Virus record (IMG/VR): IMGVR_UViG_3300030118_001361
Location: 1-28,844 of that record
Length of the DNA: 28,844 nt
Strand: one strand, 5' to 3'
Source: a virus
A program made the position numbers and the translations under genes. The notes under the pieces are model-generated. The model was not told where the DNA came from. It did no database searches and saw nothing but the letters and a program-made list of their open reading frames with translations. This document shows, one piece after another, positions 8,402 through 23,469 of the stretch (positions are counted from its first letter, which is position 1; every line of letters begins with the position of its first letter).

Positions 8402-8590
8402 TTACCAAGATTTAACTTCATTATAAACTTTGTCAAATTGACTTATCATATCTTTTGACAAATCTTCTTTATATTGTCCTTGCATAAAATTTTTATTTGT
8501 TTTATATACATTACCATTTAGCAACATTAGTATTTTATTATTATAGATAAAATAAGTTACATTGTTATTTTCATAGATTCCATTTTTCAT
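8402..8590 (-). CDS. Hypothetical 62-aa protein, an isolated reverse-strand moron inside the structural region
   Basis: ATG-initiated ORF ending right at the bidirectional terminator, with about 100 nt of very AT-rich DNA upstream of it (8591-8690). Confidence 0.5.
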   Translation of the reverse strand: MKNGIYENNNVTYFIYNNKILMLLNGNVYKTNKNFMQGQYKEDLSKDMISQFDKVYNEVKSW

Positions 8591-9681: not shown

Positions 9682-11871
9682 ATGAAGAAAAAAGACAATA
9701 TATCAGTAATACATTTAGCAGAATATAATCTGCCTACAATTACAGAAACAAACAATAAAGACTGGATTCAATTTGGATCAGATAATTTGTACCCTCAATA
9801 CTTACTAGAACTATACAACGGTAGTAGTATTAACAATGCTATTATAAAAGGTGTTAGTAGTATGATTTATGGCGAGGGTTTAGACGCTACTGATAGAGAA
9901 GATGACGATAATAAAAAGGGTAATTGGTTAGCTTTAAACACTTTGTTACATAATTCGCCTAAAGATACGTTAAAATGTTTAGCGTTTGATTTAAAGCTAT
10001 TTGGAATGTGCTATGTTAATACTATATGGAACAGACCTAGAACAAAGATAGTAGAGGTTAGGCATATACCTGCACAATATATAAGAAGTGGTAAAGCTGA
10101 TGCTTATGGTAAAGTAAATGAGTATTATTATAGTGCCGATTGGGAAAACACTAGAAAACACAAACCAAGATACTATAAAGCATTTGACTTAAAAGATAGA
10201 ACAGATGCAAATCAAGTTTTATGTATAAAAGATTATAGTCCTGGATCTTACTACTATGCAACTCCTGACTATCAGGGTTCTACTAGCTACATACAATTAG
10301 ATATGGAGATTGCACAATTTCATTTGTCTAATATCAAATCAGGTATGTTTCCGTCTATGGCAATAAATATGTCAAACGGAATACCAACAAGAGAAGAAAG
10401 AAGAACTATAGAAAGACAAATAAACGCTAAGTTTGGTGGTTCAGGTAATGCGGGTAAAATACTATTGACGTTTAATGATGGTAAAGATACTGCTCCTGAG
10501 ATAGTACCTATTAATGCTAATGACAATTCTGATAGCTACCAATTTTTATCTACAGAAACAACTAGAAAGGTTTTAACAGGACACAGGGTTACAAGTCCTT
10601 TATTATTTGGAGTAAAAGGAGATGGTTCAGGCTTTGGTAATAATGCAGATGAACTTAGAGATAGTTACAGCCTATTTAACAATACAGTTATAAAGCCATT
10701 TCAAAACACACTTTTAGAGGGTTTAGAGCCAATATTACACGCAAACGGTATAGAACTTGATTTATACTTTAAAACGCTAAAACCTGCTGATTTCATTGAT
10801 ATTAGTAATGTAAATAAACTTGATGAAGATGAACAAGAAAAAGAGGGTATAGATACTGATAACAATGAACCAATAAAAAAAGAGTTTAAAGACTTAAAAG
10901 ATATAGATACTAAGCCTACAAAAGGTATGATAGAACAGGCTAAAATTGGTTTAGAAATGCGTAAGGAATATGGTAGAGGTGGAACTATGGTTGCAGTTGC
11001 AAGAGCGCGTAATATTGTAAACGGAGATAATTTAAGTTTAGAAACAATTAGCAGAATGAACAGTTTTTTTGCTAGACACGAAGTAGATAAAAAAGCAGAG
11101 GGCTTTAATCCTGGAGAAAAAGGTTATCCCTCAGCAGGAGCGATAGCATGGAAGTTGTGGGGCGGAGATGCAGGTCAAACTTGGGCAAAAAAAAAAGTAG
11201 AAGAAATTAAAAAAGTAAGAGAAGATTTAGACCTGCCTAAAAATGATGAACAAGCATATATAGAATACTTTACACAAAATGCAATAAAGCTAGATGATGA
11301 TTGGGAAGAATTAAGAGTAGATACAGTTGATACTAACGAAGAAGAAGAAGAAAACTTTTACAAGTTTGCAACTGATGTTCCTGGCGGAGATACCGCAGGA
11401 AACTTATTAAAAGAAGCTACTAAGATTGGATTGTTTAAATTGTATTACAGATATTCAGCAAATATTTCAGCTAATAGTAGAGATTTTTGCAGAATAATGG
11501 TAGCACTTAGAAAAGCTAGAAACGTATATACAAGAAAAGCTATTTTAAATGCAGGTAGTAGAGCGGTAAATCCTGGATTTGGAAAGAATGGAAGCAATAC
11601 ATATTCAGTTTGGAATTGGAAAGGTGGAGTATATTGTCATCATTTTTGGGAGCGGGTATGGTATTTTAGAAAAAGAGTACCTAAAGGCGAACAAATAACA
11701 ATAGACGGAAAAACATATAAAGGTGGTCAAGTGTTACCTGATACAACAATTAGAAATTATAAAAAAGTTACAAATGCTTTTGCGGAAAGAATGGGGGTTA
11801 ATATGCCTTTTAATGATACTAAGGCAACTACTGCTCCTATCAACACTCCAACAAGAGGTAAATACAGTTAA
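9682..11871 (+). CDS. Portal protein fused to a C-terminal SPP1 gp7 / Mu F-like head-morphogenesis domain (729 aa)
   Basis: The N-terminal about 380 aa are portal-like (YQGSTSYIQLDMEIAQFHLSNIKSGMFPS...INAKFGGSGNAGKILLTF). An acidic linker follows, then the module RGGTMVAVARARNIV...LWGGDAGQTWAKKK. The MuF-like end reads SRDFCRIMV...YSVWNWKGGVYCHHFWERVW. Confidence 0.7.
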   Translation: MKKKDNISVIHLAEYNLPTITETNNKDWIQFGSDNLYPQYLLELYNGSSINNAIIKGVSSMIYGEGLDATDREDDDNKKGNWLALNTLLHNSPKDTLKCLAFDLKLFGMCYVNTIWNRPRTKIVEVRHIPAQYIRSGKADAYGKVNEYYYSADWENTRKHKPRYYKAFDLKDRTDANQVLCIKDYSPGSYYYATPDYQGSTSYIQLDMEIAQFHLSNIKSGMFPSMAINMSNGIPTREERRTIERQINAKFGGSGNAGKILLTFNDGKDTAPEIVPINANDNSDSYQFLSTETTRKVLTGHRVTSPLLFGVKGDGSGFGNNADELRDSYSLFNNTVIKPFQNTLLEGLEPILHANGIELDLYFKTLKPADFIDISNVNKLDEDEQEKEGIDTDNNEPIKKEFKDLKDIDTKPTKGMIEQAKIGLEMRKEYGRGGTMVAVARARNIVNGDNLSLETISRMNSFFARHEVDKKAEGFNPGEKGYPSAGAIAWKLWGGDAGQTWAKKKVEEIKKVREDLDLPKNDEQAYIEYFTQNAIKLDDDWEELRVDTVDTNEEEEENFYKFATDVPGGDTAGNLLKEATKIGLFKLYYRYSANISANSRDFCRIMVALRKARNVYTRKAILNAGSRAVNPGFGKNGSNTYSVWNWKGGVYCHHFWERVWYFRKRVPKGEQITIDGKTYKGGQVLPDTTIRNYKKVTNAFAERMGVNMPFNDTKATTAPINTPTRGKYS

Positions 11872-14792: not shown

Positions 14793-15058
14793 AGATAAAC
14801 GAAAAATCAGAGTTCACACTTGATTTAAAGACAATTATAATGGTAGTTGGCTTTGCTATATCACTATCTGCAACATATTTTACATTGAAAGCTGAGGTTG
14901 AATTAGCAAAAACACTACCTAAAAGTGAAATATCACGTTCAGAGATGGATTTAAAGATGGAGTTAATTAGTAAAACTGTTTTATCAAACGCAGAAAAACT
15001 AGGCAAAATGGAAAGTGCCGTTGAAAAAATAGAGGAACGGGTTTACGAACTAAAATGA
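14789..15058 (+). CDS. N-terminally membrane-anchored coiled-coil protein (i-spanin-like topology)
   Basis: A single TM (IIMVVGFAISLSATYF) is followed by a charged helical region (EVELAKTLPK...KLGKMESAVEKIEERVYELK). ATGA overlaps occur at both ends. Confidence 0.4.
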   Translation: MKINEKSEFTLDLKTIIMVVGFAISLSATYFTLKAEVELAKTLPKSEISRSEMDLKMELISKTVLSNAEKLGKMESAVEKIEERVYELK

Positions 15059-15432
15059 AATTTTTAAAATACATATTACTATTGTTGGTAGGACAGACCA
15101 TAGCACAAACTACTGTTACAACTGAAAGTGCTTTAAATAAGCACACAAAAATTAATGGGATAGTTGTAGTAGAGTTTTGGGCAAAGTGGAATGATAAAAA
15201 TGCTTGTAGTTTTTTAAAAGACTTGGAAGATTGCAATACTGTTAGAGCAGATATTGGAATTAGTACAACACTACAAGAAAAATACGATATAGAAGTCCTA
15301 CCAACTTTAGTTGTTATTAACAATGGTGTTGAAATAACACGTTTTACAGGTAACATTTTATTTCAGCTAAATGTTAAAAAACAAGAAGTACAAGCCAAAA
15401 TAGATAGCATAATAATAAGTAAATTTGAATAA
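15055..15432 (+). CDS. Secreted thioredoxin-fold protein lacking the CxxC active site
   Basis: Signal peptide MKFLKYILLLLVGQTIAQ. VVVEFWAKWNDKNA aligns by eye to thioredoxin VDFWAEWCGPCK, and a cis-Pro-like LPTLVVINNGVE is retained. NDKN replaces CGPC at 15178-15201. Confidence 0.55.
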   Translation: MKFLKYILLLLVGQTIAQTTVTTESALNKHTKINGIVVVEFWAKWNDKNACSFLKDLEDCNTVRADIGISTTLQEKYDIEVLPTLVVINNGVEITRFTGNILFQLNVKKQEVQAKIDSIIISKFE

Positions 15433-16476: not shown

Positions 16477-17151
16477 ATGCGTGTTTCTAATGGTGGTGTA
16501 GTAAATAATGTTCTTGTTATTGGAGATTTACACGAACCTTTTTGCTTAGATAAATACCTAGAATTTTGTGTATCTAAATATGAACAATTTGATTGCACAG
16601 AAGTTGTATTTATAGGAGATATAATAGACAATCATTATTCAAGTTATCACGAAACAAATGCAGACGGAATGGGTGGAGCAGATGAATTAGAACTGTCTAT
16701 AAAACGTATTGCTAGATGGTATAAAGAATTTCCTATAGCAACTGTAATAATTGGAAATCACGACAGAATGATTTTTAGGAAAGGGCAAACGTCAGCAATA
16801 CCTAGTAAATGGATAAAAAGCTATAAAGAGGTTTTAGAAGTGCCTAATTGGAACTTTGTTGAAAGATACGTTAAAGATGGTGTTCAATTTTTACACGGAG
16901 AAAGTGGAACAGCCAAAACAAAGTGCAAAAGTGATATGATGAATACAGTACAAGGTCATTTACATACTCAAGCATATTGCGAACACTTTGTCGGTCAAAA
17001 TTTTAGAGTTTTTGGAATGCAGGTAGGTTGTGGTATAGATCACGAAAGTTACGCAATGGCTTATGCTAAATACGGAAAGAAACCTGCTATAGGTTGTGGA
17101 GTTGTTTTAAACAATGGTAAGTTACCTATAAATCTACTAATGGAATTATAA
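16477..17151 (+). CDS. Calcineurin-like metallophosphoesterase
   Basis: All canonical motifs occur in order: GDLHEP (DxH), GDIIDN (GDxxDR-like), GNHD, LHGE, GHLH. Confidence 0.8.
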   Translation: MRVSNGGVVNNVLVIGDLHEPFCLDKYLEFCVSKYEQFDCTEVVFIGDIIDNHYSSYHETNADGMGGADELELSIKRIARWYKEFPIATVIIGNHDRMIFRKGQTSAIPSKWIKSYKEVLEVPNWNFVERYVKDGVQFLHGESGTAKTKCKSDMMNTVQGHLHTQAYCEHFVGQNFRVFGMQVGCGIDHESYAMAYAKYGKKPAIGCGVVLNNGKLPINLLMEL

Positions 17152-17415
17152 AACAATACCTTTTAAAACTTCACGTTCTCTTATAAAGTTTTCATAATCT
17201 AAAGCAGATTGAATTAGATAGTATCTTTTAAATTTCTTAACATCTCCGTACATATTTTTTTTGCTTATATAAAAAGATTCTATTCTATAATCATCATTTT
17301 TTAAATCTCTTATTACACCCTGTAAATCTAATATTATAAGTTTTTGCATACATTCTAAAGTAGTTATGCTAAAATTATCCTGGAAATATTTTATTAATTG
17401 TTCTTTTTGTGTCAT
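17146..17415 (-). CDS. Winged-helix DNA-binding protein (small phage HTH type), last gene of the reverse operon
   Basis: MTQKEQLIKYFQDNFSITTLECMQKLIILDLQGVIRDLKNDDYRIES... matches by eye the 'ITTLEA...I..L..RI.DLK..GY.I' winged-helix family. Its stop overlaps the convergent + gene by 6 nt. Confidence 0.6.
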   Translation of the reverse strand: MTQKEQLIKYFQDNFSITTLECMQKLIILDLQGVIRDLKNDDYRIESFYISKKNMYGDVKKFKRYYLIQSALDYENFIREREVLKGIVL

Positions 17416-17423
17416 TTTATTTA

Positions 17424-17570
17424 TTAAATTACATTATTAATTTCTTCTTTTAAATCTTCAAAATATTCTGTATCACTAATTAAATATATAAGATACTGTA
17501 TGTCTTTTTTTGGATTTTTTGATTTATTCAAAATAAAATCTATGTATTTATTTATTTGTTTTTCGTTCAT
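17424..17570 (-). CDS. Small hypothetical protein (48 aa, not in the ORF track)
   Basis: MNEKQINKYIDFILNKSKNPKKDIQYLIYLISDTEYFEDLKEEINNVI. It overlaps the 3' end of the upstream gene by 23 nt. Confidence 0.35.
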   Translation of the reverse strand: MNEKQINKYIDFILNKSKNPKKDIQYLIYLISDTEYFEDLKEEINNVI

Positions 17571-17769
17571 TACTTAATTCTATTATTATGTTATAAAAGT
17601 ATTTATAGTATTTGTCAAAATCTAACTGAGCCTCTTTAGTATATTTAAAACTTCTATATTCATCATAGTTGTTTATAGTATATTCTTTATTAAGATCAGT
17701 ATATTTTTTTTCTACTTTTTTGTGTGCTAAAGCTATTGCTAAAGTATCTGCATTTATATTTATGTTCAT
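17548..17769 (-). CDS. Hypothetical protein (73 aa)
   Basis: ATG ORF whose start overlaps the stop of the upstream 38-aa ORF (ATGA). Confidence 0.5.
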   Translation of the reverse strand: MNININADTLAIALAHKKVEKKYTDLNKEYTINNYDEYRSFKYTKEAQLDFDKYYKYFYNIIIELSNERKTNK

Positions 17770-17882
17770 TGTTCTAGTTTTATTGGTTCACAAATTTCTC
17801 CGCAATCAGAACATCTTTGACTATCTGAATTGCTAGGAGCATTACAACAATCTGAATATATATCTAATATTTGTTTTTCCAT
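17766..17882 (-). CDS. Small Cys-rich (zinc-ribbon-like) protein, 38 aa
   Basis: MEKQILDIYSDCCNAPSNSDSQRCSDCGEICEPIKLEQ, with CC...CxxCxxxC. ATGA couples it to the next gene. Confidence 0.4.
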   Translation of the reverse strand: MEKQILDIYSDCCNAPSNSDSQRCSDCGEICEPIKLEQ

Positions 17883-17884
17883 AA

Positions 17885-17965
17885 TTAAGATTTTAGTTTT
17901 CTGTTTTTAGAATATTCGCACAAATGACAAATAGCTAAAAATATTGTTATTATTATTATTTCCAT
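17885..17965 (-). CDS. Tiny hydrophobic peptide, 26 aa
   Basis: MEIIIITIFLAICHLCEYSKNRKLKS. Its ATG shares a base with the upstream TAA (TAATG). Confidence 0.25.
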   Translation of the reverse strand: MEIIIITIFLAICHLCEYSKNRKLKS

Positions 17966-18114
17966 TACTTTTTGTTTTTATATTCTACTTTAATTGGTTT
18001 TCTTTTAAAATATTCATTGTTAGATATTTTATCTATATTGTCAAGAATATTATTAATGTTCTTCTCCCATTCTGGGAAAGTTTGCTCTGTCATTATTTTG
18101 TTTTTTGTTTTCAT
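17965..18114 (-). CDS. Small hypothetical protein, first gene of the reverse operon (49 aa, or 42 aa if it starts at the second ATG, 18093)
   Basis: MKTKNKIMTEQTFPEWEKNINNILDNIDKISNNEYFKRKPIKVEYKNKK. It lies directly downstream of a TTTG-N16-TATATTTG motif on the - strand. Confidence 0.35.
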   Translation of the reverse strand: MKTKNKIMTEQTFPEWEKNINNILDNIDKISNNEYFKRKPIKVEYKNKK

Positions 18115-18118
18115 AATA

Positions 18119-18146
18119 CAAATATATATAAAATAAATTTAACAAA
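18119..18146 (-). promoter_or_regulatory. Bacteroidota-type promoter candidate for the reverse operon (TTTG-N16-TATATTTG on the - strand)
   Basis: CAAATATA at 18119-18126 and CAAA at 18143-18146 on the + strand are TATATTTG and TTTG on the - strand. This matches the TAnnTTTG -7 consensus, though the spacer is shorter than the one I recall as optimal. Confidence 0.4.
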
Positions 18147-18186
18147 ATAAATAAATACTTTATACTTTATTAACAATTTTTATGTT

Positions 18187-18214
18187 AATATCTTTTTATT
18201 TTTGTAAAGATATT
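18187..18214. promoter_or_regulatory. Perfect 9-bp inverted repeat AATATCTTT-N10-AAAGATATT, a candidate operator
   Basis: 18187-18195 is the reverse complement of 18206-18214. The repeat overlaps the -33 TTTG of the rightward promoter candidate. Confidence 0.45.
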
Positions 18215-18227
18215 TTAACTATATTTG
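18201..18227 (+). promoter_or_regulatory. Bacteroidota-type promoter candidate for the rightward early operon (TTTG-N15-TATATTTG)
   Basis: TTTG at 18201-18204 and TATATTTG at 18220-18227, 15 nt upstream of the ATG at 18243. Confidence 0.4.
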
Positions 18228-18242
18228 ATAAAATTATTTTAT

Positions 18243-18467
18243 ATGAGATTTACACAATTTAAAGCACAAGATGAAGTAAGAGAAACTTTGATCTTAGAGA
18301 TGATGAAAAATAAAGTAAGAAAAAATCACTTAGCAAAAGAACTAAATTTGTCATATCCGACAATGCTTTCTAAACTAGAGCAACCTTTTAGCTTTAAAGT
18401 AAGTGAACTTTTATTACTTTGTGAAATTGTCAAACTTGATATTAACGAATTATTAATTAAATACTAA
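18243..18467 (+). CDS. Cro/CI-like helix-turn-helix regulator (74 aa from the ATG at 18243; the ORF track used a TTG at 18225)
   Basis: RKNHLAKELNLSYPTMLSKLEQP is a classic HTH. It is the first gene after the divergent promoter region. Confidence 0.6.
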   Translation: MRFTQFKAQDEVRETLILEMMKNKVRKNHLAKELNLSYPTMLSKLEQPFSFKVSELLLLCEIVKLDINELLIKY

Positions 18468-18471
18468 AAAA

Positions 18472-18879
18472 ATGGAAACAAGAAAATCAACAATAACAGA
18501 ATTAAATTTACAGTCAGAAAAATTTAACGATATGTTTATATTTACTATATGTTTTGAAAATGGAGATATAGGAAAATTATACAAAAGAAAAGATAAAACT
18601 TATGAGCAAGTCGGAGATGAGGTAGAATATACTTTAAGTCCTAAAGGAACTGTTAAAATAGCTTTTAAAGGCGAAAGTAAATTTAATGATAATAATAACA
18701 AGCCAAGCTACTCTAATAATAACAATGATGCTAGAGAAGATATTAGGTTTAGCGTTGCTTTTAAAGGAGCAATAGAATTAGCTAGTGCAGGTAAAATAGG
18801 AATAGATGAAGTAGAAAAATTTACTGTTATGTATGACGATTTTTTAAAAGATAAGAAGTCAGTTGAGATGCCTTTTTAA
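18472..18879 (+). CDS. Hypothetical early protein with an Asn-rich linker and an SSB-like C-terminal tip (...SVEMPF)
   Basis: Clean ORF whose C-terminus ends in hydrophobic-Pro-Phe, like the bacterial SSB tail (DDDIPF). No OB-fold could be verified by eye. Confidence 0.35.
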   Translation: METRKSTITELNLQSEKFNDMFIFTICFENGDIGKLYKRKDKTYEQVGDEVEYTLSPKGTVKIAFKGESKFNDNNNKPSYSNNNNDAREDIRFSVAFKGAIELASAGKIGIDEVEKFTVMYDDFLKDKKSVEMPF

Positions 18880-19961: not shown

Positions 19962-20302
19962 AAGAACAGGACTTACACAATAGTATAGTAGATTATTTAA
20001 ACTATTATCCTCATATACTTTGGACTTCTACTTTAGGCGGTGTTTATTTAGGTAAGGGTAACTATAAGCAAAAAGCATTAGTAAAAAAGCATTATAAAAA
20101 AGGTGTGCCTGATATACTAATATTTGAACCTAATTTAAAGCATAATGGTTTAATGGTTGAGCTGAAAGTTAAATACAATAAGCCTAGTAAAGATCAAAAA
20201 CTATGGTTAGCTAATTTAACTGCTAGAGGTTATAAAGCGGTTGTTTGTTATTCACTAGAAGAATTTATAGAAATATTTACTAATTATACTAAAACTTTAT
20301 AA
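19958..20302 (+). CDS. VRR-NUC domain nuclease (PD-(D/E)xK)
   Basis: GVPDILIF...GLMVELKV...SKDQKLWL matches the VRR-NUC signature (PD...E-x-K...Q..W). Confidence 0.7.
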   Translation: MKEQDLHNSIVDYLNYYPHILWTSTLGGVYLGKGNYKQKALVKKHYKKGVPDILIFEPNLKHNGLMVELKVKYNKPSKDQKLWLANLTARGYKAVVCYSLEEFIEIFTNYTKTL

Positions 20303-20952
20303 TGTTTAAAAAAAACAATCTTAAAATAATAAATGCAGATTGCATGGATATAATGAAAGGTTATGAAGATGATTATTTTGATTTAGCTATAATAGATCCA
20401 CCTTATGGTATTAATAAAAAAATAAAAATTGGTAGTGGTATGATGAAAAACTACACTAATAAAACAAAAAATATTAGTTGGGATAATTCTATACCTGATG
20501 AATCGTATTTTAAAGAACTTTTCAGAATAAGTAAAAATCAAATTATATGGGGTGGTAATTATATGATTAAGCACTTATATAATACAAGCTGTTTTTTAAT
20601 ATGGGACAAACAAAACGGAACAAATAATATGGCTGATGCAGAGATAGCCTGGACATCATTTGTTTCATCAATTAGAATATATAGAGGTCATATTTTTAAA
20701 GGAATAGGTTGCACAAAATATAAACCTATTCACCCTACTCAGAAACCAATTAAATTATATGATTGGATTTTAAAAAAATATGCAAAAAAAACAGATAAAA
20801 TATTAGATACTCATTTAGGAAGTGGCTCTAGTGCTATATCTAGTTTTTATTATGGTTGCAAAGAATTTGTAGGAATTGAAATAAATACAGAATATTACAA
20901 TAAAAGTATAAAAAGAATACAACAAGAAACAGTACAAATTAAATTATTATGA
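20302..20952 (+). CDS. DNA methyltransferase, beta-class N6A/N4C (DPPY first, then the AdoMet motif)
   Basis: INADCMDIM...LAIIDPPYGI (DPPY at 20395-20406) ...HPTQKPIKLYDWILKKY...ILDTHLGSGSSAIS. Confidence 0.85.
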   Translation: MFKKNNLKIINADCMDIMKGYEDDYFDLAIIDPPYGINKKIKIGSGMMKNYTNKTKNISWDNSIPDESYFKELFRISKNQIIWGGNYMIKHLYNTSCFLIWDKQNGTNNMADAEIAWTSFVSSIRIYRGHIFKGIGCTKYKPIHPTQKPIKLYDWILKKYAKKTDKILDTHLGSGSSAISSFYYGCKEFVGIEINTEYYNKSIKRIQQETVQIKLL

Positions 20953-21861: not shown

Positions 21862-22223
21862 CAAAATCAAAAGGAATCGGAGATGATATTGCAAAATTTA
21901 CTAAAGCAACTGGAATAGATAAATTAGCTAAAAAAGTATTAGGAGATGACTGTGGTTGTGAAGAACGCAGACAAAAACTAAATCAAATGTTTCCACACTT
22001 TAAGAACATTAGACAGTTTACAGAAGATGAGATAAAGATATATGATGAAGTAATGCCTGTAATAGAAAAAAGCCAAAGAATAACAAAAGATGAAAAAGTT
22101 ATTGTTAATGCTTTGTATAAAGGTGTATTTGGTAATAATCCAACCTGGAAATCTTGTAGTCCGTGTAACAAACAAATAATAGATAACCTGAAAAAGGTAT
22201 ATAAAAAGTCTTGTAAAGTATGA
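21858..22223 (+). CDS. Hypothetical protein with paired Cys motifs (CGC...CSPC)
   Basis: The clean ORF GIGDDIAKFTKATGIDKLAKKVLGDDCGCEERRQKLNQMFP resembles a conserved small marine-phage protein (from memory, unverified). Confidence 0.5.
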   Translation: MTKSKGIGDDIAKFTKATGIDKLAKKVLGDDCGCEERRQKLNQMFPHFKNIRQFTEDEIKIYDEVMPVIEKSQRITKDEKVIVNALYKGVFGNNPTWKSCSPCNKQIIDNLKKVYKKSCKV

Positions 22224-22738
22224 AAATAAATAGAATATGGTCAATGCCTAATAAATGGACTTTTAAAATTAAACCAATTAACGACTTAATAAATAAATAT
22301 GGTGGAGATTTTAAAAATTGGATTGATCCATTTGCAGGAATGAACTCTCCTGCTGAAATAACGAACGATTTAAACCCTAAAAGTTGTGCTAAATATAATA
22401 TGAAAGCGTTAGATTTTTCCAAAATGCTAAATGGAAAATATTCAGGCGTTTTATTTGATCCCCCATATTCAGGCAGACAGGTTAAAGAATGTTATAATGA
22501 CTTGGGAATTGATGTTTTAAGAGATGATACAAACGCTTTTTTTTATTGTAGCGTAAAAAGGGAATTAAGCAAAAAAATAAAATTAGGCGGATATGCTTTA
22601 AGTTTTGGATGGAATAGTAATGGTTTTGGCAAAAAGCATGGTTTTGAAATAATAGAAGTTTTGTTAGTCGCGCATGGTTCAGCACACAACGACACGATAT
22701 GCACAGTAGAAAAAAAAGTATATAAAGAAATCTTTTAA
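22220..22738 (+). CDS. Compact (172 aa) DNA methyltransferase-like protein, gamma-type motif order (DPFAG then DPPY)
   Basis: WIDPFAGMNSP (AdoMet motif I-like) is followed by VLFDPPYSGRQ (DPPY at 22457-22468). Confidence 0.6.
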   Translation: MKINRIWSMPNKWTFKIKPINDLINKYGGDFKNWIDPFAGMNSPAEITNDLNPKSCAKYNMKALDFSKMLNGKYSGVLFDPPYSGRQVKECYNDLGIDVLRDDTNAFFYCSVKRELSKKIKLGGYALSFGWNSNGFGKKHGFEIIEVLLVAHGSAHNDTICTVEKKVYKEIF

Positions 22739-22741
22739 GAT

Positions 22742-22993
22742 ATGAAAAAGCACGTTAAAATATATATGGATTATCACGATTACGTTTTAGATGATGTAAT
22801 TTTATGTTCTGCTTGTGGTGCAGTTGCAGTTGACATTCATCATATTTCAGGACGTGGAATTGGTGGATCAAAGAATAAAGACTTTATAGAAAACCTTATA
22901 GCTTTATGTAGAAGATGTCATATAAAAGCAGAAACAGATAAAAAATTTAACAATCAGCTAAAAGAATTAAATAAAAAAAAGCATAGCAAATGA
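22742..22993 (+). CDS. HNH endonuclease
   Basis: CSACG...DIHHISGRG...NLIALCRRCH, a Cys4-framed H-N-H motif. Confidence 0.7.
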   Translation: MKKHVKIYMDYHDYVLDDVILCSACGAVAVDIHHISGRGIGGSKNKDFIENLIALCRRCHIKAETDKKFNNQLKELNKKKHSK

Positions 22994-23469
22994 AAATAGA
23001 AAAAGTTAAAATAGCAGAATTAAACCCAGCAGAGTATAACCCTAGAAGAATGACTAATAAACAATATGAGGATTTAAAAAACTCATTAGAAAAGTTTGGT
23101 CTAGTTGACCCTATAATAATAAACTCAGATAATACAGTTGTTGGTGGTCATCAACGTTTACGAATAATTAGGGAATTAGGAGCGGAATATGTACCTACAG
23201 TAAGAGTTAATCTATCTAAAGAAGATGAGAAAGAATTGAACATAAGGCTAAACAAAAATACTGCTGAATGGGATATGGATATGCTATGTAACTTTGATAT
23301 AGATGACTTACTAGATTGGGGTTTTAAGCATATAGAATTAGGTTTTAACATAGACAAAATAGAAGAAGATAAGCCAACAACAGTAACAGTAAAAGAGAAA
23401 GACATAAAACTAGCTAATAAATTATATGAAGATTTAAAGGCAAAAGGATATAAAGTAACTATAAAATAA
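22990..23469 (+). CDS. ParB N-terminal (ParB/Srx) nuclease-like domain protein
   Basis: IAELNPAEYNPRRMTNKQYEDLKNSLEKFGLVDPIIIN...VVGGHQRLRIIRELG. Confidence 0.7.
   Translation: MKIEKVKIAELNPAEYNPRRMTNKQYEDLKNSLEKFGLVDPIIINSDNTVVGGHQRLRIIRELGAEYVPTVRVNLSKEDEKELNIRLNKNTAEWDMDMLCNFDIDDLLDWGFKHIELGFNIDKIEEDKPTTVTVKEKDIKLANKLYEDLKAKGYKVTIK

Follow-up and report, generated by a model that had tools for sequence, protein, structure and literature searches.

The six small minus-strand ORFs that lie between the lysis module and the Cro and O-like replication genes of an uncultured marine phage are supported as real genes, forming a single, co-directional and tightly coupled unit that faces a Cro-type gene. 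This unit is a slot-structured cassette in which unrelated genes are swapped one by one among near-identical genomes. We put the chances at about even that it is a modular early accessory operon, in which small effector genes are followed by a winged-helix DNA-binding gene and transcribed leftwards. Its layout is that expected of host-takeover or anti-defence genes, a putative function suggested by the architecture. The window, by which we mean the whole 28,844-nt stretch of DNA analysed (IMG/VR record IMGVR_UViG_3300030118_001361), comes from an apparently non-integrating, uncultured phage, probably of marine Flavobacteriia, with a genome of ~28.8 kb, the size being derived from two copies 28.77 kb apart within one contig. 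Features of the locus are listed in Table 1.

Table 1. Features of the six-gene cassette and its control region (positions in the window).
Feature	Position	Strand	Description
Gene 1	17965..18114	-	49 aa, basic (pI 9.6), family F6; promoter-proximal slot A
Gene 2	17885..17965	-	26 aa, family F2; near-core
Gene 3	17766..17882	-	38 aa, acidic (net -5), family F3; slot C
Gene 4	17548..17769	-	73 aa, family F1, Tyr-rich; core gene
Gene 5	17424..17570	-	48 aa, acidic, family F25; rare insert directly before winged-helix gene
Gene 6	17146..17415	-	89 aa, winged-helix DNA-binding protein (Pfam HTH_39); last in unit
Divergent control region	18115..18242		128 bp between gene 1 and Cro-type gene
Candidate cassette -7 box	18119..18126	-	TATATTTG (TAnnTTTG), Bacteroidota-type, 4 nt from gene 1 ATG
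Palindrome O1	18168..18190		TATTAACA-N7-TGTTAATA; candidate operator for dimeric DNA-binding protein
Palindrome O2	18187..18214		AATATCTTT-N10-AAAGATATT; candidate, operator-like
Best candidate cro -7 box	18197-18204	+	TATTTTTG; conserved, bracketed by O2
Cro/CI-type HTH gene	18243..18467	+	74 aa; first gene of the rightward replication-to-lysis direction

The chain of six ATG-initiated ORFs tiles positions 17146-18114 of the minus strand (49, 26, 38, 73, 48 and 89 aa). From gene 1 to gene 6 the junctions are TAATG (1-nt overlap), a 2-nt gap, ATGA (4-nt overlap), a 23-nt overlap and an 8-nt gap, and both lengths and overlaps are exactly as described in the initial annotation. The block is the sole minus-strand gene block in the window, the remaining genes all being on the plus strand, and its G+C content is the lowest in the window (23% versus ~30%). 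This base composition, together with the very short length of the ORFs and the failure of gene callers to find the 26-aa ORF, could be taken to favour chance ORFs within AT-rich non-coding DNA, an explanation that we regard as refuted. At 969 nt the chain is the longest on the minus strand, the runner-up reaching 478 nt, and in 2000 dinucleotide shuffles of the region the longest chain obtained was 285 nt, so that 900 nt was never reached. All six ORFs were found again, intact, in related marine phage contigs. Five of them (genes 1-4 and 6) stay open in 5-13 related loci each and are under purifying selection, with pooled dN/dS values for genes 1, 2, 3, 4 and 6 of 0.12, 0.50, 0.09, 0.125 and 0.117, respectively. 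The small genes had been proposed to be fast-evolving, which these values contradict; the sequences themselves are constrained (dN/dS 0.09-0.50) and the variation consists of whole-gene replacement.

In 36 related cassettes, the interval that separates an invariant promoter block from the winged-helix gene ranged from 628 to 1502 nt in length and contained 26 unrelated small-protein families, with no relationship between families detected by hhalign. The cassettes are built from three near-universal genes, two slots filled by mutually exclusive alternatives, and 19 rare families inserted at fixed points. All four combinations of the slot alternatives (F4 or F6 and F3 or F5) occur, and every cassette terminates in the same winged-helix gene wherever the contig extends far enough. 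Between the window and one relative (L004), the Cro and 135-aa proteins are 100% identical and the cassette DNA is 95.6% identical, but two whole-gene indels separate them, and the assembly VTLG01 alone contains four different cassettes. The exchange breakpoints fall inside the first codons of genes. Whole-gene gain, loss and replacement between near-identical flanks places the locus among hypervariable accessory (moron-like or hyperplastic) regions. The strong differences between otherwise near-identical phages agree with the earlier proposal that gene content upstream of the winged-helix gene is variable. The description of the locus as variable small genes plus a conserved DNA binder is supported, with the 73-aa and 26-aa genes being core and not variable. 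The near-universality of the latter two families (F1 and F2) is equally compatible with a housekeeping phage function and with an accessory role. Acidic (for example F3, F5 and F10) or membrane character is common among the cassette proteins.

The initial annotation could name nothing that the small proteins resemble, and neither can we: searches of Pfam, PHROGs, NCBIfam and PDB sequences detected no homologue of known function for any of them, no Acr, Aca or anti-defence match, and no Acr homology for any of the six products, and Foldseek searches of the PDB gave no Acr or Aca match for the winged-helix and 73-aa proteins. Slot A is occupied by the family of gene 1 in 15/36 cassettes and by F4, an unrelated 61-aa coiled-coil-like family, in 21/36, the two being mutually exclusive. 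Gene 1 itself gave no database match; a weak PHROG match to a Phd-like antitoxin (E 0.04) was insignificant and was dropped. Gene 2 encodes a candidate small membrane peptide, whose N-terminal ~16 residues form a hydrophobic stretch (Kyte-Doolittle 15-residue maximum 2.45) and whose tail is basic. It is retained as a 25-26-aa ORF in all 13 first-round loci, and its family is present in 30/36 cassettes. A role as a toxin-antitoxin or lysis-accessory peptide, for which hydrophobicity was the sole support, was not adopted. Gene 3, a candidate metal-binding mini-protein, carries the pattern CC-x10-CxxC-x3-C, with all five cysteines invariant across 12 distinct sequences. Slot C is filled by its family in 22/36 cassettes and in 15/36 by F5, an acidic 69-aa family for which hhalign found no relationship to F3.

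The family of gene 4 is present in 34/36 cassettes. Its 53 homologues among 5.8 billion proteins are each at least 69% identical, and the family is confined to this phage clade. The AlphaFold model (pLDDT 80) has two helices, a predicted helical hairpin, for which Foldseek found no significant match in the PDB; a match to an AcrIIA1 chain (E 6.9) was rejected as noise. Gene 5 is missing from the IMG/VR relatives and from all 36 cassettes. A counterpart, a 49-aa ORF with 92% identity, occupies the same place in a sister lineage (L075-L078), again with a 23-nt overlap; the codon differences there are three synonymous and four non-synonymous, so that the coding evidence is the weakest among the six genes. 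Homology links the first codons of gene 5 to the beginning of the winged-helix gene of other relatives, the junction reading ATGAAC[G/C]AAAAACAA...AAATAC.

The 89-aa product of gene 6 had been called a winged-helix DNA binder, and both sequence profile and predicted structure bear this out. The protein is a member of the HTH_39 family (PF14090) by Pfam's own threshold (E 1.3e-6, 28.6 bits against a gathering threshold of 21.3), its residues 2-67 aligning to profile positions 1-67 of 70. The AlphaFold model (pLDDT 93.7) has the topology H-E-H-H-E-E-H with a long beta-hairpin wing, the same winged-helix fold as predicted for the family, and its Foldseek neighbours are winged-helix domains. The best PDB matches (TFIIE-alpha WH, Stf76, MarR-type proteins and RTP) all had E values above 1e-3, and no Aca structure was among the 50 matches listed, a comparison confined to Aca families with solved structures. 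No PDB sequence match was found. Structure prediction, suggested in the initial annotation for each peptide, covered the 89-aa and 73-aa proteins and yielded a winged-helix fold for the former and no known fold for the latter. An extra C-terminal helix (residues 71-83) is missing in the 65-72-aa HTH_39 homologues. The stop codon of gene 6 shares 6 nt with the stop of a convergent metallophosphoesterase gene.

The winged-helix gene is present in all relatives except L075-L078, where a 120-aa basic ORFan takes its place; this protein has no Pfam, PHROG or PDB match, and its homologues are clade-internal only. The initial annotation had suggested guilt-by-association searches for the winged-helix gene next to variable small ORFs. 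The distant HTH_39 homologues examined (L014-L019 and L066) are embedded in co-directional early arrays beside ERF, SSB or O genes and not at operon ends beside variable small genes; the next gene encodes ERF or SSB in L014-L018 and in L066. In Mannheimia phages the HTH_39 gene is placed between cII and O (PMC4553209). Gene 6 differs from these in being operon-terminal and on the opposite strand.

In the divergent control region, 78 of 128 positions are invariant among 27 distinct sequences and the mean pairwise difference is 0.119, versus 0.31-0.52 for synonymous sites in the genes on either side. All 35 cassettes in which a 21-nt block (18183-18203) is paired with the winged-helix gene have this block in identical form, save for one substitution in L061. 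TAnnTTTG is the -7 consensus of Bacteroidota promoters. As such sequences are common in AT-rich DNA (54 matches in the window), the evidence for the candidate cassette -7 box is its conservation (pairwise difference 0.036). Its distance from the gene 1 ATG would imply a leaderless or very short-leader mRNA; in relatives with F4 first, the leader would be ~22 nt. The rigid -33/-7 pattern TTTG-N19-TAnnTTTG had no match in the window, and a sigma-70 promoter scan, whose consensus does not fit Bacteroidota, performed at chance level (17 found versus 15.3 expected).

The arms of O1 (18168-18175 and 18183-18190) differ by 0.005 per site among relatives and its spacer by 0.416, which is the neutral rate; frozen arms around a neutrally drifting spacer are the pattern expected of an operator. 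Apart from O1, the window contains no copy of TTAACA-N7-TGTTAA free of mismatches; with this one exact copy and near-matches at chance level, the motif was rejected as a global regulon signal. For O2 the pairwise difference is 0.04 in the arms and 0.043 in the spacer. Both palindromes lie 42-96 nt upstream of the -7 box proposed for the cassette and overlap the best promoter candidate for the opposing cro gene, an arrangement that does not suggest simple Aca-style autorepression. An alternative cro box, TATATTTG at 18220-18227, is not conserved (0.184).

The Cro-type protein matched Pfam HTH_26 slightly under the cut-off (E 0.001, 19.7 bits, cut-off 22 bits) and the PHROG family phrog_4583, 'transcriptional repressor', with an E value of 2e-6; conservation among relatives begins at ATG 18243, not at TTG 18225. 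In the lineage with the replaced winged helix (L075-L078), two of the 78 invariant control positions differ, both within palindrome arms, a covariation of operator and terminal gene that involves a single lineage with two substitutions and has a probability of ~0.13 by chance. Phages of the L001 type have a Cro protein only 39% identical, yet retain the winged helix and the canonical block. These patterns give a weak hint that the terminal protein may read the operators; the recognition helix is similar between the two Cro types, so that Cro alone could bind both palindromes.

A conserved hairpin and U-run terminator lies directly after the winged-helix gene in 21 of 27 distinct relatives (for example L006 6290-6362, -26.9 kcal/mol, z -5.4, two compensatory pairs). 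No intrinsic terminator was found at 16900-18600 of the window, which has lost this element. Rfam gave nothing credible in the same interval or in the terminator region of the relatives, and no tRNAs were found. The window ORFs that were scanned against PHROGs included no integrase, and no partition system was recognised, a ParB-like match being to a 159-aa nuclease-type domain. A search of 185,579 species genomes found no prophage copy, the one distant match being in a Bacilli MAG. The window matches a contig from run ERR599358 at 100% identity. No close DNA relative was found among GenBank phages; the nearest cultured phage, Nonlabens phage P12024S (portal 34.5% identity), is without the cassette.

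In the modular accessory operon that we favour, transcription would start at the Bacteroidota-type promoter close to the first ATG and the cistrons would be translationally coupled via their overlaps. The products of genes 1-5 (basic 49-mer, membrane peptide, acidic five-Cys metal binder, helical hairpin and acidic 48-mer) are predicted from context to be effectors that act on host targets soon after infection, with takeover, counter-defence or superinfection exclusion as candidate roles, and the turnover of the variable slots may reflect host differences. The winged helix, probably as a dimer, and/or the Cro-type protein would bind O1 and O2. Given that both palindromes lie over the candidate cro promoter, with the centre of O1 near position -62 relative to the cassette promoter, their occupancy would mainly set the balance of rightward and leftward transcription, not simply shut off the cassette.

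The six-gene unit has the same architectural logic as acr-aca and anti-defence loci, and in this respect its earlier description as acr-aca-like stands: short, unrelated, interchangeable genes precede, within a single operon, a conserved small HTH-type gene, the upstream control region contains conserved inverted repeats, and related elements carry different small genes with the same regulator (26 families, 36 cassettes), gene content differing even among close relatives. What does not stand is an Acr or Aca identity. Were this truly an acr-aca operon, at least one small protein would inhibit host CRISPR-Cas and the winged helix would represent a new, self-repressing Aca family; several products are acidic (F3, F5 and F10), and Aca proteins are known to recognise inverted repeats and are able to control neighbouring operons (PMC13551039, PMC6765145). 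We consider this very improbable, given the lack of Acr or Aca similarity in Pfam, PHROGs, NCBIfam or PDB sequences, or by fold for the two modelled products, and the location of distant HTH_39 homologues next to genes for ERF, SSB or O. The Aca families listed in PMC13551039, Aca1-12 (HTH) and Aca14 (RHH), do not include HTH_39; the repeats overlap the candidate opposing promoter and not the operon's own putative core promoter; the cassette would have no 5' UTR able to hold an Aca-type RNA motif; and two of its small genes are core. A quite unlikely alternative is an immunity or switch module in which the winged helix acts as a CI-like repressor of the rightward promoter and is made together with exclusion genes, as rexAB is made with lambda cI, in support of a non-integrated carrier or pseudolysogenic state. 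The palindromes extend over the candidate -7 and -33 zone of the cro promoter that is best conserved, the position of O1 relative to the leftward promoter is activator-like, two different palindromes lie beside two different DNA-binding genes, and the block occupies the site between lysis and early genes where temperate siphoviruses have their lysogeny module. Unlike in a lambdoid CI/Cro switch, however, the putative repressor gene is last of six, its product has no oligomerisation or cleavage domain, and neither an integrase nor a partition system was recognised in the window, nor an integrated copy in 185,579 species genomes; moreover, one lineage has exchanged the winged helix for the unrelated 120-aa protein with the control region almost unchanged.

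It is also unlikely, in our estimate, that these are ordinary early genes with no regulatory link, Cro alone reading the operators and the HTH_39 protein being a replication or recombination accessory. The positions of HTH_39 genes in unrelated phages, directly upstream of ERF or SSB or between cII and O (PMC4553209), are consistent with such a role, we found no described function for any HTH_39 member, and the two Cro types resemble each other around the recognition helix, which could account for the operators being unchanged. In this clade, however, the winged-helix gene is apart from the replication genes and on the other strand, and the only lineage without it has substitutions in the otherwise frozen palindrome arms.

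Lambdoid PL-type operons and the hyperplastic early regions of T4-, T5- and T7-like phages contain small, non-essential, mosaic, host-directed genes. The cassette resembles these in its direction of transcription, which leads away from the replication genes and starts at a promoter placed back-to-back with the one on the cro side, and in its exchange at gene boundaries. It differs in its much smaller size (0.6-1.5 kb), in having neither an N-type antiterminator nor recombination genes, and in its terminal winged-helix gene and Bacteroidota-type promoter elements, in a phage with no recognisable lysogeny genes. In archaeal viruses, anti-defence genes have been found via a shared early regulatory sequence (PMC11065993). 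That system likewise has a highly conserved regulatory sequence before variable small genes, with regulator candidates associated; the present locus belongs to a bacterial virus, occurs once per genome, has an O1 motif unique in the window and is known from sequence alone.

To our knowledge, very few counter-defence or takeover proteins are known for Bacteroidota. If the small genes act on the host, the locus would be a compact, naturally barcoded candidate library, and HTH_39, a widespread phage domain, would gain a first testable function and a defined DNA target. Even if they prove to be ordinary early genes, the locus remains a record of how wild phage populations exchange modules gene by gene at start-codon boundaries. 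As the cargo spans 0.6-1.5 kb between the invariant promoter block and the conserved winged-helix gene, it should be amplifiable or minable from ocean metagenomes. It is a tentative possibility that the cassette is an exchange hotspot for counter-defence or takeover genes under a two-protein divergent switch, with HTH_39 as an unrecognised class of Aca-like or CI-like regulator. In that case, the cassettes of this abundant, uncultured lineage would hold at least 27 unstudied small-protein families, including the putative five-Cys metal-binding 38-mer and several predicted membrane peptides.

The reverse-strand cassette is real and richer than the initial annotation described. In an abundant uncultured marine phage lineage, small genes arranged in slots form an operon that is rapidly reshuffled while its control region, with two palindromes, hardly varies. 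Reading the reverse strand gave the six ATG-initiated ORFs that had been claimed (49, 26, 38, 73, 48 and 89 aa), with exactly the junctions reported, namely TAATG, a 2-nt gap, ATGA, a 23-nt overlap and an 8-nt gap. The cassette is the sole reverse-strand gene block in the window, the remainder being coded on the forward strand, and has its lowest G+C content (23% versus about 30%). It is also the longest reverse-strand ORF chain (969 nt; the runner-up is 478 nt), and 2000 dinucleotide shuffles of the region yielded no chain of 900 nt or more (maximum 285 nt). The 89-aa protein is encoded in 12 IMG/VR loci and 55 metagenome loci, and wherever a locus reaches both sides, the cassette is flanked by a divergent Cro-type gene and a convergent phosphoesterase gene.

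Positions of features in the window and, where named, in related loci (own numbering)
Feature	Position	Strand	Detail
Isolated ORF	8402-8590	-	62 aa
Portal	9682-11871		729 aa
Gene upstream of endolysin	15055-15432		125 aa
Metallophosphoesterase	16477-17151	+	
Cassette	17146-18114	-	six genes
First-slot gene start	18106-18114	-	
Control region	18115-18242		128 bp
O1 palindrome	18168-18190		TATTAACA-N7-TGTTAATA
Conserved block	18183-18203		21 nt
O2 palindrome	18187-18214		AATATCTTT-N10-AAAGATATT
Candidate cro -7 box, best conserved	18197-18204		TATTTTTG, between O2 arms
Cro-type gene start	18243	+	ATG, 74 aa; mechanical ORF 18225-18467
DNA methyltransferases and ParB-like domain	20302-20952, 22220-22738, 22990-23469		
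HNH endonuclease	22742-22993		
Hairpin, L006	6290-6362		
Membrane-peptide ORF (25 aa), L007	4787-4906		extendable to 39 aa
Membrane-peptide ORF (25 aa), L008	3939-4058		extendable to 39 aa
Variant cassette, L075	2248-3539		
First-slot gene starts	L003 904, L004 2586, L032 847, L051 2096		

Conservation of the small ORFs as ORFs, on which the initial annotation had staked its reading, was borne out in that none of the five genes compared is frame-disrupted in relatives. Pooled Nei-Gojobori dN/dS values across related loci were 0.12 (49-aa gene), 0.50 (26-aa), 0.09 (38-aa), 0.125 (73-aa) and 0.117 (89-aa), with synonymous differences of 0.31-0.52. The five cysteines of the 38-aa protein are unchanged across 12 distinct sequences, and all copies of the 26-aa peptide keep a hydrophobic N-terminal half and a basic tail. 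Coding evidence is weakest for the 48-aa ORF, which has no relative among the IMG/VR and metagenome cassette loci. Searching 1.84 billion representatives in full with HMMER recovered a 49-aa protein of 92% identity (3 synonymous versus 4 non-synonymous differences), located at the equivalent position in a sister lineage (L075-L078) with the 23-nt overlap retained. In some relatives (L007, L008 and L048) an ATG within the preceding gene would lengthen the 25-aa membrane-peptide ORF at its upstream end to 39 aa (MVCSTGFNYKK...), and its start is ambiguous there.

Gene content was compared across 36 cassettes, all with the promoter block and the cassette 3' end and 35 reaching the winged-helix gene. 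BLAST clustering gave 26 mutually unrelated families, with no relation found by hhalign among the eleven commonest, and the distance from promoter to winged-helix gene ranged from 628 to 1502 nt. The 73-aa and 26-aa families are near-universal (34/36 and 30/36), and the winged-helix gene closes 35 cassettes, every one whose contig extends so far. Slot A holds either the 49-aa family or an unrelated coiled-coil-like family (F4, 61 aa) and slot C either the Cys-rich 38-aa family or an unrelated 69-aa family (F5), both strongly acidic; all four combinations were seen. The 19 rare families are inserted on the promoter side, beside the membrane-peptide slot or directly before the winged-helix gene, the last being the site of the window's 48-aa gene (F25).

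Cassette turnover is fast relative to the backbone. The Cro and 135-aa proteins of the window and one relative (L004) are 100% identical and the shared cassette DNA is 95.6% identical, yet the two cassettes differ by two whole-gene indels; a single assembly (VTLG01) contains four different cassettes. Exchange breakpoints fall within the first codons of genes. In L002/L005-type relatives, the winged-helix gene opens with sequence homologous to the beginning of the 48-aa gene and the 73-aa gene tail that overlaps it, indicating that the variation reflects module exchange. The description of the small genes as fast-evolving thus holds for gene content but not for sequence, which does not drift rapidly. 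Unrelated first-slot genes nearly all start MKT or MKK (ATGAAAAC/ATGAAAAA), and the slot preceding the winged-helix gene has genes that start MN(E/K)K or MTQ; these shared starts could reflect either a constraint for leaderless-mRNA translation or recombination joints. In L075-L078 the order is different (F5-like, F4, F9, the 73-aa family, F25) and the winged-helix gene is replaced by a 120-aa basic ORFan with no database match beyond the clade.

The 89-aa protein was confirmed as a winged helix by Pfam (HTH_39, above the family threshold). Its confident model (pLDDT 93.7) has the winged-helix fold, with a long beta-hairpin and one additional helix at the C-terminus. The structures nearest to it are generic winged-helix domains (TFIIE-alpha, Stf76 of pSSVx, MarR-type regulators and RTP; E-values all exceed 1e-3), and in the viral library it neighbours unnamed 'HTH domain' proteins of uncultured phages. 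As first suspected, the small proteins resemble nothing known, with no match in Pfam, PHROGs, NCBIfam or PDB sequences, and the same searches gave none for ten alternative cassette proteins. The 73-aa protein is modelled as a helical hairpin, for which no fold match was found, and its homologues all lie within this phage clade. Every protein family of the cassette is previously unstudied.

The control region separates the first cassette ATG from the cro ATG, which we place at 18243, not at the TTG at 18225, as conservation in relatives begins there. The clade has two Cro types (the window type and that of L001/L020/L029/L075), only 39% identical, under essentially one control region. In 27 distinct sequences 78 of its 128 positions are invariant; with a mean pairwise difference of 0.119, the region is under much stronger conservation than synonymous sites. 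The 21-nt block is identical in all but one (L061, a single substitution) of the 35 cassettes carrying both it and the winged-helix gene. The arms of O1, whose motif has no other exact copy in the window, hardly differ between relatives (0.005), whereas its spacer diverges as fast as neutral sequence (0.416); this pattern is typical of a site recognised by a dimeric DNA-binding protein and makes O1 a candidate operator. The Bacteroidota -7 consensus is TAnnTTTG. A conserved TATATTTG that fits it lies 4 nt from the first cassette ATG, so that the cassette mRNA is predicted to be leaderless or to have a very short leader. O1 covers the -33 zone of the candidate cro -7 box, and its centre lies some 62 nt upstream of the cassette start. 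Because such motifs are common in the AT-rich window (54 matches), both promoters are putative.

At the other end, 21 of 27 distinct relatives carry a conserved hairpin and U-run directly behind the stop codon of the winged-helix gene, marking this gene as the last of the leftward transcription unit. In L006 the hairpin folds at -26.9 kcal/mol (z = -5.4); an alignment of eight sequences has compensatory substitutions at two of its base pairs, and no Rfam family matched. The hairpin is absent from the window and five relatives (L001, L004, L020, L025 and L029), and no terminator was found 3' of the window's winged-helix gene. Some 95 nt have been lost here in the window's subgroup, leaving the convergent winged-helix and phosphoesterase genes with a 6-nt overlap at their stops. 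Leftward transcription would in that case continue into the lysis genes on their antisense strand, as would late rightward transcription into the cassette.

The cassette belongs to a known kind of locus, the hypervariable accessory regions of phages that are accompanied by a gene for a DNA-binding protein. With roughly even confidence we regard it as an early accessory operon, whose products would act in host takeover, counter-defence or exclusion and whose expression the winged helix and/or the Cro-type protein would balance against the rightward operon. That the winged helix has no regulatory link to the cassette is unlikely. L075-L078, the only lineage in which it is replaced, differ at only two of the 78 invariant control-region positions, both in palindrome arms (18183 and 18191); phages with a 39% identical Cro but the same winged helix retain the canonical block. 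This covariation, which would tie the terminal gene to the operators, comes from a single lineage and has a probability of about 13% by chance, and is a lead, not a result. We consider a CI-like immunity module somewhat less likely still.

The initial annotation had favoured an anti-CRISPR (acr-aca) layout, and variable small genes do precede a conserved DNA-binding gene, as that architecture predicts. However, searches of Pfam, PHROGs, NCBIfam and PDB sequences found no Acr or Aca homologue among the cassette products, and HTH_39 is not among the Aca families named in the literature consulted, Aca1-12 (HTH) and Aca14 (RHH) (PMC13551039, PMC6765145). Moreover, the palindromes overlap the opposing candidate promoter, not the operon's own putative core promoter, and more distant HTH_39 genes are not operon-terminal anchors. 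The suggested guilt-by-association search placed them within early regions transcribed in one direction, with ERF or SSB directly following, and in Mannheimia phages an HTH_39 gene lies between cII and O (PMC4553209). A true acr-aca locus is very improbable.

PHROG and Pfam scans of the window gave a gene order of tail and tape-measure-like genes, protease, capsid-like gene and portal, then endolysin, holin, metallophosphoesterase and the cassette, followed by the Cro/CI-type HTH gene (forward strand), a 135-aa gene, an O-like replication initiator, resolvase, DNA methyltransferases, HNH, a ParB-like domain, TerS and TerL; no integrase was recognised. Two copies of the locus (L038/L039) lie 28,767 nt apart on a 67.5-kb metagenome contig (VTLG01007481.1), implying a genome unit of about 28.8 kb and hence that the window is about one complete genome, probably circularly permuted. 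Several relatives are contigs of 28.3-29.9 kb. Across the part that was compared, a Tara Oceans contig matches the window at 100% identity. The nearest cultured phage, Nonlabens (Flavobacteriaceae) phage P12024S, shares only 34.5% portal identity and has no cassette, and the phosphoesterase gene alone shows DNA similarity to phages of Cellulophaga, Nonlabens and Tenacibaculum. No integrated copy was found in 185,579 prokaryotic species (one genome per species). Marine Flavobacteriia are thus a putative host only, and the phage is putatively virulent or at least does not integrate.

The rightward operon has genes for two or more DNA methyltransferases, an HNH endonuclease and a ParB-like domain of nuclease type, the last also matched by methyltransferase PHROGs. 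By methylating its own DNA the phage may thus already counter restriction without any contribution from the cassette. A segment that annotations of Roseobacter phages (CRP-406, CRP-811 and CRP-82x) place at the capsid/portal boundary shares 67-68% identity with portal residues 411-502 (92 residues), whereas the remaining portal is only 34% identical to its best match, the Nonlabens phage; the stretch looks like a mobile inserted domain common to phages of different host phyla. The 125-aa gene has no PHROG match, and faint thioredoxin-family Pfam matches were recorded for an identical protein (L079) and homologues in L075-L077. A second isolated reverse-strand ORF (62 aa) occupies a 336-nt gap among forward-strand structural genes and has an 83% identical relative on one IMG/VR contig (L086); P12024S likewise has lone reverse-strand small genes amid its structural genes.
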